The notes under the pieces are model-generated. The model saw only the letters and a program-made list of their open reading frames with translations. It searched no databases and had not been told where the DNA came from. Below, one piece after another: positions 9,643 to 43,601 of a stretch of DNA of 64,000 nt (positions within the stretch are counted from its first letter, which is position 1; every line of letters starts with the position of its first letter). This DNA is from an uncultured Candidatus Actinomarina sp. Lineage in GTDB: Bacteria; Actinomycetota; Acidimicrobiia; Actinomarinales; Actinomarinaceae. A program made the translations under genes and the position numbers. The DNA is taken from positions 340 through 64,339 of the forward strand of contig CACJIM010000004.1 in NCBI GenBank assembly GCA_902593475.1, written 5' to 3'.

Positions 9643-9671
9643 AGTTGCCATCTAAAATAAAAGTGTTAAGC

Positions 9672-9689
9672 TTGTGAATATATTCACAA
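9672..9689. promoter_or_regulatory. Perfect 18-bp palindrome TTGTGAATATATTCACAA (CRP/FNR-type TGTGA-N6-TCACA site)
   Basis: The sequence is its own reverse complement. It lies 19 nt upstream of the ATG at 9708, next to a TATATA box at 9692-9697. Confidence 0.45.
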
Positions 9690-9707
9690 AGTATATAAAG
9701 GAATAAA

Positions 9708-9902
9708 ATGACAGACGGATTAAAAGCTAGTCAAATTAAGGGCGGAATAAGGCCATCAAAAAGTTTTGACCAGGGCAGAGTATGTAAAGATGATTCTTGC
9801 AGTACTCAACTAAGTATATATAACAAAAGAGATCATTGCTTCAATCACGCTCCAGTGAAATATCCTAGAGTTAGAGGCAGAATTCTCCAAGAAACTGCTT
9901 AA
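9708..9902 (+). CDS. Small putative zinc-ribbon protein
   Basis: 64 aa with C-x4-C-x12-C-x2-H spacing (CKDDSC...CFNH). AAGGA precedes the ATG, and terminator hairpins follow the gene. Confidence 0.55.
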   Translation: MTDGLKASQIKGGIRPSKSFDQGRVCKDDSCSTQLSIYNKRDHCFNHAPVKYPRVRGRILQETA

Positions 9903-9922
9903 GTTTTAAACTCCCCCCTAAT

Positions 9923-9978
9923 GAAATCTCCCCCATGAGATTTCCGATAAGCCCCTATGAGAATAGGGGCTTATTTTA
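9923..9978 (+). terminator. Tandem hairpins forming a rho-independent terminator
   Basis: First hairpin is GAAATCTC-CCCCAT-GAGATTTC (9923-9944). Second is AAGCCCCTA-TGAGAA-TAGGGGCTT (9949-9972), followed by ATTTTAT. Confidence 0.6.
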
Positions 9979-10005
9979 TAAATACATCATTATTATTATT
10001 TAGTT

Positions 10006-10215
10006 ATGGAAACAAAATTTACTGTACCTGAAATTAGTTGTGGACACTGTAAAGAAACAATTGAGTCAACTATAAATAGTCTCGAAAATGTTGAAGCTGT
10101 CAATGTTGATATTGATCAAAAATCAGTAGAAGTTAAGTCTTCCTCAGATCTAGATTTGTCTCTGGTTTCTAACATGCTCGATGAACAAGGCTATACAGTT
10201 GTCGAATCAAGTTAA
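10006..10215 (+). CDS. copZ: Copper chaperone, heavy-metal-associated domain
   Basis: 69 aa with an HMA fold and the CGHC metal-binding motif (EISCGHCKETIE). Confidence 0.85.
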   Translation: METKFTVPEISCGHCKETIESTINSLENVEAVNVDIDQKSVEVKSSSDLDLSLVSNMLDEQGYTVVESS

Positions 10216-25910: not shown

Positions 25911-25984
25911 CACGCCCGGAGGGAGTCGAACCCCCAACCTTCTGATCCGTAGTCAGATGCTCTATCCAGTTAAGCTACGGGCGC
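25911..25984 (-). tRNA. tRNA-Arg (anticodon ACG)
   Basis: Reverse complement is GCGCCCGTAGCTTAACTGGATAGAGCATCTGACTACGGATCAGAAGGTTGGGGGTTCGACTCCCTCCGGGCGTG. It forms a cloverleaf with anticodon loop CTACGGA and T-loop GGTTCGA. Confidence 0.93.
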
Positions 25985-25988
25985 ATTG

Positions 25989-26075
25989 CGGAGAGGGAGG
26001 GATTCGAACCCTCGAGGGAATTTCTTCCCCACTCGCTTAGCAGGCGAGCACTTTAGGCCACTCAGTCACCTCTCC
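25989..26075 (-). tRNA. tRNA-Ser (anticodon GCT)
   Basis: Reverse complement begins GGAGAGGTGACTGAGTGG. The anticodon stem-loop is CTCGC-CTGCTAA-GCGAG, with a long variable arm and T-loop GGTTCGAATCC. Confidence 0.92.
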
Positions 26076-26082
26076 AAGTCAG

Positions 26083-26168
26083 CGGAGGGAGTGGGATTCG
26101 AACCCACGGTATGGAATACATACAATAGTTTTCAAGACTATCGCCTTCGTCCGCTCGGCCATCCCTCC
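26083..26168 (-). tRNA. tRNA-Ser (anticodon TGA)
   Basis: Reverse complement begins GGAGGGATGGCCGAGCGG. The anticodon stem-loop is ATAGT-CTTGAAA-ACTAT, with a long variable arm and T-loop GGTTCGAATCC. Confidence 0.92.
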
Positions 26169-26188
26169 AGATGGTTTCTTTCTTTTTG

Positions 26189-26277
26189 CGGAGGGAGAGG
26201 GATTCGAACCCTCGAAGGGGATAAACCCTTACACGCTTTCCAAGCGTGCGCACTAGGCCAGACTATGCGATCCCTCC
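26189..26277 (-). tRNA. tRNA-Ser (anticodon GGA)
   Basis: Reverse complement begins GGAGGGATCGCATAGTCTGG. The anticodon stem-loop is CACGC-TTGGAAA-GCGTG, with a long variable arm and T-loop GGTTCGAATCC. Confidence 0.92.
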
Positions 26278-26304
26278 GAAAAAAAACCTGAGATTCTATT
26301 TTAG

Positions 26305-26763
26305 TTATCTCTTACTGTCAAAGAAAGAGGATAATATAGCTTCAGATTCATGGGAAAGAATATTATCTTTTATCTCGACATGATGGTTAAGTCGAGGGTC
26401 TTGTGGAATATTATATAATGAATATGCTGCTCCCGCTTTAAGGTTAGGTGCTCCATAAATAAGTTTGCTAATTCTAGCATTTAAAATTGCACCCGCACAC
26501 ATGGCGTCTGGTTCTAAAGTTACTACTATTGTTGCCTCTTCAAGTCTCCAAGTACCTAGGATTTGTGAGGCTTCTTCTAAAACTAGTATCTCCGCATGAG
26601 AGATTGGATTTTGGTCTATTTCTCTTCTGTTGTGATTTGCACAAATTAAATTATCTTCCTTATCAAATATTGCTGCACCCACAGGGACCTCATCAATATC
26701 ATACGCTTTCCTTGCTTCCCTAAGAGCTACCCTCATCTTGTCTTCGTCTGATTTATATTTCAT
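26305..26763 (-). CDS. tadA: tRNA adenosine(34) deaminase
   Basis: 152 aa that aligns end to end with TadA (VPVGA, SHAEIL, TLEP-AMCAGA, KLIYGA). The first Cys of the PCxxC zinc motif is Asp here (see findings). Confidence 0.88.
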   Translation of the reverse strand: MKYKSDEDKMRVALREARKAYDIDEVPVGAAIFDKEDNLICANHNRREIDQNPISHAEILVLEEASQILGTWRLEEATIVVTLEPDAMCAGAILNARISKLIYGAPNLKAGAAYSLYNIPQDPRLNHHVEIKDNILSHESEAILSSFFDSKR

Positions 26764-41246: not shown

Positions 41247-42530
41247 TTAGGGAAGAATTAATTCTGCAGTAAATAATTGATATATCCTATCTCCCATAGC
41301 ATTTGGGGCTCCACCCATGACTATTAAGTAAGATTTTTCATCTATTGGAATTCCTGTTGGGTCTAAGTAACTATAGTCTTTTGGAGTAATCCTCTCTTCG
41401 ATAAACTCCCAAGTTAAACCATCTTTGGAAGTTGCATAAAATAAACTCTGTGGAGTTGAAGGTAAATAATGTGGGGTATAAGACATTAATGCTTTCCAAT
41501 CGCCATCTTCAGCTTTCAGTACTTCAAAATCTACGTAACCGTTATCAACTCTATAACCAGGGTCGATTGTAAACTCTGTTCCTTTTTCAGTTTTTGAAGT
41601 TGCACTTACTATTTTTTCTGGGGAAGTTCTATCTTCTGTGTATACCCAGTAAACCCTAACGAGGCCATTTGGCATAACTACTGCATCAGGTACTCCCCAG
41701 GCAATTTCATCTTTTTGAGCGGTAATTCCTAATGGTGTCTTATTTGAATAAGATAGTCCATCCTCAGAAAAAGTAGCTGTAAAAATACCACTCTCTCTTG
41801 TGTTTGGGTTCAACTCAACAAAGTATCCCCTTCTCTCGCCAGCTTTAGTTTGAACTATCGTAAGGTCTGTGATGAATTGGATACTTCCCTGGGTTTCACA
41901 ATTTAAATCATTACTGCAAAGCAATACGGCAACTCCTCCTAAATCGTTATAAAATAATCTCACTGTTGAATCATTTACTCTCTCAAGGTGAGGACTTGTA
42001 CCAAAAAATTCTAAAGATGTTAAATTTTCAATTTTAGCAAGTGGTCCGATATTGCTTGTTGAATCAGAGCTGTTGTTTTTGTTAGATCTAGGTGCTTCTT
42101 TTATGCCAATCCCAGGTGGGGAGGGTATATTACAGTTAGTAAAATAATCCATTTGTTGTTGAAGAATTGCACCCTCTTGTATTAAGTTTTTTTCCATATC
42201 TTTTAGTGACTCTGTAGAAGAAATTTCAGCAATACATTCTTGTTCTTTTGTAGATAAGAAGGAAAGAGCACCTTCTGGAAACTCTTTAAGGACTTCATCA
42301 ATATTGGCCTTGTTTTTACTAGATTGTTCATCCTTCTCTTTTTCAGATTCTTTATTTGAATTAGTTAATGGCTCGTCTTGGGTTTTATTTTCTCCTTGAG
42401 GTGAAGGTTTGTTAATAGGTGTATTTTCTTGTATTAAATCACCAGAGGCCTGATTTTCAACATTTTCATTACCAGTACAAGATTGAAGCAGCAAAAATAG
42501 AATAATGCCTATTTTTATTGACTTATTCAT
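41247..42530 (-). CDS. Secreted lipoprotein of unknown function
   Basis: 427 aa with signal peptide and lipobox LLLQSC. A low-complexity acidic linker is followed by a beta-rich C-terminal domain. No family recognised. Confidence 0.6.
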   Translation of the reverse strand: MNKSIKIGIILFLLLQSCTGNENVENQASGDLIQENTPINKPSPQGENKTQDEPLTNSNKESEKEKDEQSSKNKANIDEVLKEFPEGALSFLSTKEQECIAEISSTESLKDMEKNLIQEGAILQQQMDYFTNCNIPSPPGIGIKEAPRSNKNNSSDSTSNIGPLAKIENLTSLEFFGTSPHLERVNDSTVRLFYNDLGGVAVLLCSNDLNCETQGSIQFITDLTIVQTKAGERRGYFVELNPNTRESGIFTATFSEDGLSYSNKTPLGITAQKDEIAWGVPDAVVMPNGLVRVYWVYTEDRTSPEKIVSATSKTEKGTEFTIDPGYRVDNGYVDFEVLKAEDGDWKALMSYTPHYLPSTPQSLFYATSKDGLTWEFIEERITPKDYSYLDPTGIPIDEKSYLIVMGGAPNAMGDRIYQLFTAELILP

Positions 42531-42694
42531 ACTCGTAAGTATATGAATTATTTCTTATTTTTAAAAGAAAATGGAAAAATTATTACAATTAAAGGTAAGA
42601 CTTCCTTTCGTGCTTTAAGCCACTTTTGAAGACGATAAAACAAAAATTTACAGCCACAGGGAGTCTTTTTGCTATTTTTAATAAAAAAGGGTCA

Positions 42695-42782
42695 TAAAAA
42701 GTGAAAATCCCGATTGATCTTGCGACCTTCCGGGATTTTCTTACTATCTTCTATTCGGTCTTGCGACTTCATTTCTTATAGT
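42695..42782 (-). ncRNA. Candidate small RNA, copy A (own promoter and intrinsic terminator)
   Basis: On the reverse strand, TTGTCA (42812-42817), a 17-nt spacer and TATTTT (42789-42794) form a promoter. An 85-90 nt unit follows, with two UCGCAAGA motifs. It ends in hairpin AAAATCCCG...CGGGATTTT (42704-42739) followed by CACTTTTT. Confidence 0.45.
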
Positions 42783-42907
42783 TATTTAAAAATAGTATGT
42801 TTTTGATACTTTGACAAGATTTTTTGTTTAGTTTTTTTCGCGAACTTTTATACATAAATTTTATAAATTGGAAGCTTTGGAAGTATAAAGATTATAAAAA
42901 CTTTCGT

Positions 42908-42997
42908 AAAAAGCAAAAATCCCGATTGATCTTGCGACCCTTCGGGATTTTCTATTCTATCTTCTTTTCTATCTTGCGATTTCTTTTCCGATAGTGT
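42908..42997 (-). ncRNA. Candidate small RNA, copy B (paralogue of copy A)
   Basis: On the reverse strand, TTGCAT (43027-43032), a 17-nt spacer and TATATT (43004-43009) form a promoter. The unit has two UCGCAAGA motifs and a hairpin at 42916-42951 followed by TGCTTTTT. The architecture is collinear with copy A, about 215 nt away. Confidence 0.45.
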
Positions 42998-43070
42998 TCT
43001 ATAAATATACGTTAGTTTCTGTTCTTATGCAAGAAAGTTACTAATGTATTTTTCGCGAGGTTTTTATGAG

Positions 43071-43601
43071 TTATTCCTCTTCATAAAAATTAAAGGAATT
43101 GAAAGCCTGTTGAATCTCTTTAATAGAGACGTCATCTACTTGGACATTATATATTTCTTCACCAAATGAAAACTGTAAGAAATTATCCTCAACAAGTTCC
43201 AAATTAGTAATGTCAAAAGTGTTTTTTATTACAGAAAGCGTTCTCTCTTTAGTTCGAAGAATAACTTTTGTATCAATTATCTCAATAACCGGTTGGAATG
43301 CACTTTGTAATGTTACAAGAAGTTGTAGAAGACCAAAAAACAAAAGCAAGTAATATAGATACTCTTCCCTTGCGTTAGATCCAAAATCTCCAAGTCTAAA
43401 ATATTTAATCATTAATTGTCTAAAGGGACCAGTAATAATATTGTCTATTCCAACATACGTAAGCACACTTCCTCTTAAGAATGGAAGAAACAAACTACTT
43501 CTATCACGATAAAATTTCATATATTTTTCTCTTAAGCTATCAGAATAACCTAATTTAGCTATTGTTTTTGTATGGAAATTGTATTGATTAGACATGGCCA
43601 A
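43071..43601 (-). CDS. Hypothetical membrane-associated protein
   Basis: 176 aa with two central hydrophobic helices. The start may be the internal ATG at 43520, because 43601 overlaps the divergent phosphatase start. Confidence 0.5.
   Translation of the reverse strand: MAMSNQYNFHTKTIAKLGYSDSLREKYMKFYRDRSSLFLPFLRGSVLTYVGIDNIITGPFRQLMIKYFRLGDFGSNAREEYLYYLLLFFGLLQLLVTLQSAFQPVIEIIDTKVILRTKERTLSVIKNTFDITNLELVEDNFLQFSFGEEIYNVQVDDVSIKEIQQAFNSFNFYEEE

Follow-up and report, generated by a model that had tools for sequence, protein, structure and literature searches.

The stretch of DNA analysed here, hereafter the window, is 64,000 nt long and belongs to contig CACJIM010000004.1 of an uncultured Candidatus Actinomarina species. 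The host assembly (GCA_902593475.1; G000 where genomes have to be told apart) is a metagenome-assembled genome (MAG) of 837 kb that is 60% complete and has 33% GC. Candidatus Actinomarina (OCS155 cluster; Actinomarinales, Acidimicrobiia) are free-living actinobacteria of the sea whose genomes measure about 1 Mb and carry very few regulators. In surface ocean waters they rank among the smallest free-living bacteria and also among the most abundant; to our knowledge, they have no cultured representative. A gap of 540 nt at 42531-43070 was the longest gap of the 64-kb window without an open reading frame (ORF), the median gap being 9 nt, so the preliminary description of this DNA was right to call the spacer unusually long for the genome. 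On its minus strand lie two collinear units, A and B, which are about 213 nt apart and 83-84% identical when aligned. They had been described as tandem units resembling genes for small RNAs (sRNAs), and all of the parts listed for them were located in the sequence. These parts, with the helices predicted for the RNAs, are as follows.

43049-43059, minus strand: upstream box of unit A (CTCGCGAAAAA), 19 nt ahead of the -35 hexamer
43004-43032, minus strand: predicted promoter of unit A, TTGCAT (43032-43027), 17 nt, TATATT (43009-43004), with conserved hexamers and a variable spacer
42908-42997, minus strand: RNA A, about 88-90 nt with predicted ends (folding; covariance model R1, 117.6 bits at 42905-43002)
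42994-42990 with 42961-42957, minus strand: helix P1 of RNA A, CUAUC with GAUAG (folding and pair counts)
42980-42971, minus strand: hairpin P2 of RNA A, AUC-GCAA-GAU (folding and pair counts)
42952-42915, minus strand: 3' hairpin and predicted terminator of RNA A, then GCUUUUU (folding and pair counts)
42832-42844, minus strand: upstream box of unit B (TTCGCGAA, then an A-tract)
42789-42817, minus strand: predicted promoter of unit B, TTGTCA (42817-42812), 17 nt, TATTTT (42794-42789), from its promoter geometry
42696-42782, minus strand: RNA B, about 87 nt with predicted ends (folding; covariance model R1, 106.4 bits at 42693-42789)
42782-42778 with 42747-42743, minus strand: helix P1 of RNA B, ACUAU with AUAGU (folding)
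42767-42758, minus strand: hairpin P2 of RNA B, GUC-GCAA-GAC (folding)
42740-42703, minus strand: 3' hairpin and predicted terminator of RNA B, then ACUUUUU (folding)

Both RNAs folded into the same layout, in which P1 encloses two purine-rich strands and the GCAA-capped mini-hairpin P2, and the 3' hairpin comes next. The 3' hairpin consists of 11 bp, a 2x2 purine internal loop and another 4 bp (15 bp in total) below a GCAA cap, with a U-run after it. A terminator hairpin with a U-run had thus been recognised in both units, but the stem had been put at only 9-10 bp. The two UCGCAAGA motifs noticed in each unit were also found, and each of them forms the C(GCAA)G apex of a hairpin. A 36-nt pattern describing the hairpin matched twice in the window and never in 100 shuffles, and the folding energies of A and B were well below those of shuffled controls (z = -3.7 and -4.3).

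The same helices were predicted independently by RNAalifold, and they were conserved across 59 distinct copies of the family. Pairing held in 96.5% of the cells, compared to 30.8-50.2% when the partners were slid, and compensatory change was seen at five pairs; none of 500 shuffles reached the observed values. A pair in P2 alternated between A-U in 34 copies and G-C in 25, P1 varied from CUAUC/GAUAG to CUAAA/UUUAG or CUAUU/AAUAG, and both tetraloops varied only between GCAA and GAAA, so that the GNRA form was kept. In the sister genus, P1 was ACUUA/UAAGU or a 10-bp helix, ACUAGAUAAC/GUUAUCUAGU, and P2 was GAUUC-GCAA-GAAUC or UAUA-GCAA-UAUA. The second copy of the sister genus has the 10-bp helix in place of the purine-rich strands and retains both capped hairpins. 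The apex stem of the 3' hairpin (GGUC/GAUC, with AA below it) was essentially invariant in 57-59 of the 59 copies, at a place where covariation would be tolerated. The apex UC-GNRA-GA appears twice in each RNA, and every copy has the 3' hairpin followed by a U-run. The mean column identity of the family was 88%.

The apex of the 3' hairpin also resembles a part of the ribosome. The sequence GGUCGCAAGAUCAA (window 42939-42926 and 42727-42714) shares 12 of 14 bases with the apex of 16S rRNA helix 27, GGUCGCAAGACUAA, which lies at C1:2305-2330 of the host genome, and both apices have a purine-rich internal loop under a 4-bp stem. Apart from the sRNA 3' hairpins and helix 27, in both of which it forms the apex, the host assembly does not contain the 10-mer GGUCGCAAGA. 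This likeness may be a coincidence between stable GNRA hairpins.

Judged by sequence, a promoter of fixed geometry precedes nearly all copies of the unit. A TTGNNN hexamer, 16-18 nt and a TANNNT hexamer ending 6-8 nt before P1 were present in 132 of the 134 copies with enough upstream sequence, and the spacer was exactly 17 nt in 131 of those 132; the same test was passed by 2.2% of random genomic windows. The -35 hexamer varied as TTGCCA, TTGCAT and TTGCGT and the -10 hexamer as TATATT, TAAATT and TATTTT, with a freely varying spacer sequence, as would be expected of a sigma-70/SigA promoter. A Bacteroidota-type promoter was rejected, as the -10 element varies as TANNNT and not as TAnnTTTG. 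The boxes and the spacing of exactly 17 nt that the preliminary description gave for both units were thus borne out, as was the A-rich tract upstream of each of them (CTCGCGAAAAA at 43059-43049 in A and TTCGCGAAAAAAA at 42844-42832 in B). The box TCGCGAAAAA, also written TTCGCGAAAAA, heads each unit, and the tract reads CGCGAAAAA. A YYCGCGAA box with an A-tract was present in 129 of the 132 promoter-bearing copies and lay exactly 19 nt from the -35 hexamer in 121.

The box recurred at a few other sites. The form TTCGCGAA occurs only three times in the host assembly, namely in unit B, ahead of a whiB-like gene and in the rpmH-dnaA spacer. In the latter (G000 C2:93440-93480), a second copy of the box stands exactly 20 bp from the first, and the whiB-like site (C2:19889) precedes a leaderless gene for a protein of 84 amino acids (aa). 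Recurrence at these extra sites was seen in genomes G009, G033, G062, G082 and G086. In G009, which is a single contig, three of six TTCGCGAAAA sites were sRNA promoters, two further sites were paired 20 bp apart in a spacer that was matched to the rpmH-dnaA spacer of the host genome by its sequence layout, and the sixth was inside a coding region. The box ahead of the whiB-like gene in G000, G033, G062 and G082 was about 10 bp, or one helical turn, closer to the -35 hexamer than at the sRNA genes. This phasing and the conserved positions, rather than the counts, suggest that the box is the site of a DNA-binding regulator, and that a single putative regulator would serve the sRNA, whiB-like and rpmH-dnaA sites. 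Autoregulation of the WhiB7 type was rejected, as the 84-aa whiB-like protein has no AT-hook, and LexA, ClgR and RecA-NDp sites were rejected on the spacing of their half-sites.

The host genome carries exactly two copies of the unit, A and B. BLAST searches recovered the unit from 33 of the 36 other Actinomarina species searched; 24 genomes representing 15 further families of the class gave no match. Covariance model R1, built from the 59 distinct copies, found 1-7 copies in 57 of 63 Actinomarina species and was positive in all 12 of the high-quality genomes; it also matched the sole sister-genus genome. The order Actinomarinales consists of one family only. An exact-motif scan with GTCGCAAGATCARYYGGGATTTT over one genome per species (185,579 species) returned 92 stretches, and all but one were labelled Actinomarina, Actinomarinales or with a broader label of the same lineage (Acidimicrobiia, Acidimicrobiaceae, OCS155 cluster or Actinomycetota). 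The sole outlier was a 7-kb contig in a 'Methanosarcinales' MAG, which was probably mis-binned. Relaxing the Rfam 15 search to E <= 10 identified no family for A and B: their best minus-strand hits reached 12.6-17.8 bits with E no lower than 5.8, where the cut-offs are 197-208 bits. An Rfam scan of the whole window at the gathering cut-off returned only tRNAs and an adenosylcobalamin (AdoCbl) riboswitch. A literature search found no paper linking Actinomarina with small RNAs. By these comparisons, the family is uncatalogued in Rfam and specific to the order Actinomarinales, that is, to Actinomarina and its sister genus.

The covariance-model searches that the preliminary description had proposed found the family across related genomes, where its motifs had been expected, and gave no match in Rfam. 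A generic intergenic repeat of the REP or MITE kind, scattered over the genome, was also considered there; the unit instead proved to be low in copy number (two here, 1-7 in other genomes) and to sit at syntenic positions. The conservation of the motifs in relatives and the absence of dispersal support the reading of the units as a gene family. The near-invariant geometry, set against drifting promoter spacers, and the compensatory changes in the helices likewise favour the earlier view that the units give rise to expressed RNAs. We conclude that A and B are very probably paralogous sRNA genes of an order-specific family, each with its own promoter and terminator.

The genes and elements on either side of the two units bear on how these might act. 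They are listed here.

42584-42679, plus strand: candidate gene for RNA C, with a -10 hexamer TACAAT at 42584-42589; conserved in 46-53 distinct copies
42538-42565, minus strand: predicted promoter of the lipoprotein gene, TTTAAA, 16 nt, TATACT, with the -10 hexamer ending 7 nt before the ATG at 42530
41247-42530, minus strand: lipoprotein gene (427 aa, without a Pfam match), a neighbour outside the RNA units
43071-43601, minus strand: gene for a 176-aa protein without a Pfam match, ending 11 nt ahead of the box of unit A

The units had been placed directly upstream of the lipoprotein gene, and this was not upheld, as the opposite-strand RNA C and the lipoprotein gene's own promoter intervene. 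The distance of 7 nt from the -10 hexamer to the ATG predicts a leaderless lipoprotein mRNA. The candidate RNA C would run from about 42596 (UAAGACUUCCUUUCGUGC...) to a U-run after GGGAGUCUUUUUGCUAUUUUU, convergent with unit B, and its promoter is back to back with that of the lipoprotein gene. Its start, UAAGACUUCCUUUCGUGC, is conserved, as is a TANNNT hexamer 6-7 nt ahead of it, and the element also has two AGCCAC motifs and a 10-bp closing helix, AAGACUUCCU/AGGGAGUCUU, which is followed by the U-run. The helix contains invariant U.G pairs that are valid on the plus strand only, and these, with the conserved -10 hexamer and start, place the gene on the plus strand. RNA C had no match in Rfam and occurred in many Actinomarina genomes, also away from copies of the A/B unit. 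It is most likely a separate gene of about 75-85 nt (approximately 42596-42679) that is unrelated to A and B. The 11-mer CCACAGGGAGT of RNA C (window 42651-42666) recurs just downstream of the pair of boxes in the rpmH-dnaA spacer (G000 C2:93478-93500), and a near copy, CCACAAGGGGT, was seen in G082; this recurrence may be fortuitous, or it may mark a common binding site or another relative of RNA C.

On the other side of the spacer, relatives of the gene for the 176-aa protein were the commonest upstream neighbours of copies in other genomes, and the transcript of this gene probably ends at the hairpin of unit A. Elsewhere in the window, the second-longest gap (538 nt at 9643-10180) was accounted for by two small protein genes and not by RNA. 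These are a 64-aa Cys-rich ORF at 9708-9902 and a gene at 10006-10215 for a 69-aa CopZ-like metal-binding protein (CGHC), both on the plus strand, the second directly ahead of a P-type ATPase gene.

In other genomes, the copies occupied a small set of conserved sites. One of these follows the gene for a 151-176-aa protein without a Pfam match and precedes a cytochrome P450 gene, a convergent GNAT gene or another copy; a second follows the P450 gene and precedes lipoprotein genes; and a third lies between metX, metY or metK and a 5'-3' exonuclease gene. The fourth and fifth are found before an nfo-like apurinic/apyrimidinic (AP) endonuclease gene and before tRNA-Thr, respectively. The paralogue type, defined by the P2 pair and the 3' tail, tracked the genomic position across species, which suggests that the copies are old and separately kept. 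Paired copies fell into spacing classes of about 210 nt (empty), about 675 nt (with GNAT) and about 1468 nt (with P450), so that the A-B tandem found here represents a variable site in its 'empty' state. Three different DNA-repair genes were recurrent immediate neighbours (the nfo-like AP endonuclease, the 5'-3' exonuclease and an AlkD-type alkylation repair enzyme), which may reflect function or merely a compact genome.

About 90% of the copies were co-oriented with the downstream gene, and many ended about 30 nt before its start. The downstream genes were diverse (P450, 5'-3' exonuclease, AP endonuclease, lipoproteins and tRNA), and most had a promoter element of their own. A TANNNT hexamer 5-8 nt before the start codon was present in 16 of 17 exonuclease genes, 8 of 8 nfo-like genes, 16 of 23 lipoprotein genes and, with the first ATG taken as the start, 10 of 22 P450 genes, against a background of 10%. 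Such a leaderless arrangement of genes is common in Actinobacteria. Some copies face a convergent GNAT gene or RNA C, and these therefore have nothing downstream to regulate. At three loci (L050, L082 and L118), a B-type copy lies about 20-25 nt before tRNA-Thr(CGU) with no recognisable promoter between them, and the sequence suggests that the sRNA and the tRNA may be co-transcribed there by read-through of an interrupted U-run.

With moderate confidence, we consider independently transcribed paralogous genes for structured sRNAs, together with the following mode of action, to be the best explanation of the locus as a whole. The box, 19 nt, TTGNNN, 17 nt and TANNNT would drive each unit, and an RNA of about 88 nt would start 6-8 nt further on, with the U-run after the 3' hairpin expected to end transcription. 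The A and B RNAs would then act in trans. We tentatively propose that the invariant GNRA-capped hairpins are the recognition site of a macromolecular partner, for instance a protein, so that the RNA could serve as a decoy, a scaffold or a subunit of a ribonucleoprotein (RNP). All paralogues would present the 3' hairpin as a shared handle and owe their individual character to the 5' domain, which varies more. The hairpins probably have a secondary role as terminators, both for the upstream gene and, at convergent sites, for the opposite-strand gene. We leaned to recognition by a partner because the apex is invariant, the GNRA form is kept in both loops and the UC-GNRA-GA apex is displayed twice; because the second copy of the sister genus keeps the capped hairpins but not the purine-rich strands; and because complementary sites are not in excess in the genome.

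Several observations weigh against this explanation. The covariation is real but modest, the family being so conserved. There is strong conservation of the purine-rich strands within a paralogue type, and this also fits pairing through a seed. Given the strong co-orientation and the short distance to the next start in many copies, some effect in cis, through read-through or promoter occlusion, may occur. Finally, the frequency of TTCGCGAAAA in whole genomes was not above that of a reversed control.

Trans-acting base pairing came a close second and is a serious possibility. Here, the purine-rich strands on either side of P2 (GGAAAAGAAA and AGAAAAGAAG in A, AAGAAAUGAA and CGAAUAGAAG in B) would pair with pyrimidine-rich stretches in mRNAs or in another sRNA. 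Each paralogue would act on targets of its own, and the 3' hairpin would do no more than terminate transcription and stabilise the RNA. This is the commonest mode of action among sRNAs with a promoter and a terminator, and the strands are near invariant within a type over dozens of species in which the promoter spacers drift. The tracking of genomic position by the types also fits. A possible partner lies next to unit B, as the pyrimidine-rich 5' end of RNA C, CUUCCUUUC, is complementary to GAAANGAAG of A and B except for the central base, which recalls the crosstalk between Yfr1 and Yfr2 (PMC6778093). The CUUCC of RNA C is, however, itself paired in its closing helix, and when A and B were tested for duplexes with RNA C or the 3' end of 16S rRNA, only low-complexity or weak pairings emerged. 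In the genome, exact complementary 10-mers numbered 293 for A and 234 for B, compared to 148-603 for shuffled RNAs, and the matches of 12-15 nt were inside genes or antisense, with none at start sites. The strands are gone from the second copy of the sister genus, the A/U-rich duplexes would be weak, and most of the invariant nucleotides sit in closed hairpins. The last point also applies to UCGCAAGA, for which the preliminary description had suggested predicting complementary targets. As the closed apex of two GNRA hairpins it is unlikely to do so, and the searches for complementary targets showed no signal above shuffles.

The co-orientation of the copies with the next gene, and their ends about 30 nt before its start, could also be explained if the units were cis-acting leaders of the riboswitch or attenuator kind. 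Regulated read-through of the hairpin would then control the downstream gene, and the two units would act like tandem riboswitches on the lipoprotein/AP-endonuclease operon. The interrupted U-run of the B type (UUUUCACUUUUU) may leak, and one B-type copy stands about 20 nt before tRNA-Thr with no obvious promoter between. We nevertheless consider such leaders very unlikely. The genes downstream have unrelated functions and -10 hexamers of their own at leaderless distance, several copies run towards a convergent gene or RNA C on the other strand, and in this window unit B is separated from the lipoprotein gene by RNA C and by the promoter of that gene. Moreover, no conserved anti-terminator pairing was seen, and the terminator is the most conserved part, the opposite of what an expression platform would show.

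Similarly improbable is a passive DNA module without any function as a free RNA, either a cassette that terminates transcription in both directions or a recombination site (REP/MITE- or attC-like) that borders swappable genes. The copies do bracket variable genes in the spacing classes given above, a U-rich tract follows the hairpin on both strands, and the stop codons of upstream and convergent genes abut the hairpin. However, a genome holds just 1-7 copies at syntenic positions, and the alignment showed neither terminal inverted repeats nor target duplications. The fixed promoter geometry and the regulator-like box would be pointless in such a module, and P1 and P2, which are unneeded for termination, were kept by compensatory changes even in the sister genus.

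We give still less credence to the idea of a lineage-specific RNP, tied to the ribosome or to protein targeting, for which the A/B RNA would serve as RNA subunit or as decoy, with the invariant apex GGUCGCAAGA as its contact surface; such an RNP would have arisen in an order without the signal recognition particle (SRP) pathway. A tiny protein-coding gene is hardly credible: an ATG-started frame of 26 codons (MKSQDRIEDSKKIPEGRKINRDFHFL) is open in unit B of the window, but the ATG is absent from unit A and all A-type copies and is ATT in one B-type copy, the types differ in frame through an indel of one base ahead of the 3' hairpin, and the B-type substitutions are mostly non-synonymous (CGA, CTA, CAA; AAG, ACG, TCG).

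As probable sRNA genes, A and B resemble several known systems in part. Sibling sRNAs that share a regulator site, some of them in tandem, include the csRNAs of Streptococcus (CiaR box), Qrr1-5 of Vibrio, PrrF1/PrrF2 of Pseudomonas, OmrA/OmrB of E. coli and LhrC1-5 of Listeria. As in these systems, there are several paralogues of about 90 nt in a genome, each with its own promoter and intrinsic terminator, and the A/B genes share a box at a fixed distance from the -35 hexamer, form tandem pairs and have nearly identical 3' ends. In contrast to them, A and B have no sequence or Rfam relationship to these RNAs, and where the hallmark of the siblings is a single-stranded seed, A and B are most invariant in two closed GNRA hairpins and show no target signal.

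The Yfr2 family and Yfr1 of marine picocyanobacteria are likewise multi-copy sRNAs of about 90 nt in a streamlined and abundant host that has few regulators (PMC6778093, PMC6191309, PMC2518516). There too, a second conserved sRNA is nearly complementary, as CUUCCUUUC of RNA C is to GAAANGAAG of A and B. The hosts, however, belong to different phyla and the sequences are unrelated, and the complementarity between A/B and RNA C is imperfect, A/U-rich and partly buried in helices. Crosstalk between A/B and RNA C is thus a conjecture from analogy. The 6C RNA of Actinobacteria (RF01066) is a conserved, SOS-linked sRNA with two hairpins and a terminator (PMC5014011). It is similar in size and layout to A and B, and several Actinomarina copies lie beside DNA-repair genes (AP endonuclease, 5'-3' exonuclease and AlkD-like), but 6C RNA has C-rich loops and is usually single-copy, whereas the A/B loops are GNRA and the genes multi-copy. 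RF01066 had no match in five Actinomarina genomes, which was a weak test, since the model also stayed below the cut-off in the five other Acidimicrobiia searched and in the Corynebacterium control.

CsrB/RsmZ and domain IV of SRP RNA are two further points of comparison, in that the same short motif (UC-GCAA-GA) is shown twice on the A/B apices, a purine 2x2 loop lies under a GNRA-capped 4-bp stem and the stem bases are invariant. However, A and B lack the GGA motifs of CsrB/RsmZ, and we know of no CsrA in Actinobacteria. They also lack the AGG/AGCA symmetric loop and the asymmetric loop of domain IV. Identity with or descent from SRP (4.5S) RNA was rejected, as RF00169 and RF01854 gave no match, the domain IV pattern was absent and so were Ffh and FtsY; nor are the units syntenic with ffs, being 16 kb from the tadA-tRNA region of the window. 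6S RNA was rejected as well. RF00013 had no match in Actinomarina, with a control that was positive in only 5 of 14 genomes, and A and B are too short and of the wrong shape.

The comparison with SRP RNA also pointed to a broader absence. SRP RNA (RF00169, RF01854) was found in none of five Actinomarinales genomes, one of them a single contig, and in five of five relatives from the class, where it lies between tadA-tRNA and dnaX. The tadA-tRNA region of the window (25911-26763) contained neither ffs nor dnaX. The Ffh M domain was not found, and a motif scan of a closed genome showed no ORF resembling Ffh or FtsY. The SRP54 GTPase domain was above the cut-off in none of 65 genomes of the order (the host genome and 64 others), compared to all 24 genomes from 15 other families of the class, which gave two strong matches each (Ffh and FtsY). 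From these searches, the SRP pathway appears to be missing from the whole order Actinomarinales. The literature search found no paper linking Actinomarina with loss of the SRP, and a phrase search on bacteria without Ffh, FtsY or SRP gave nothing relevant among the papers listed.

The A/B genes thus represent an sRNA gene family that is uncatalogued and strongly conserved, yet of a familiar kind. A non-coding family that is kept in 1-7 copies of so small a genome must do something important, and the RNA is more conserved than most Actinomarina proteins. The promoter box is common to the A/B genes, the whiB-like gene and the dnaA region. With the covariance model, the predicted transcript ends and the candidate regulator site, the family offers a handle on regulation in this lineage, and the A/B RNA should serve as a specific marker of Actinomarina activity in metatranscriptomes.

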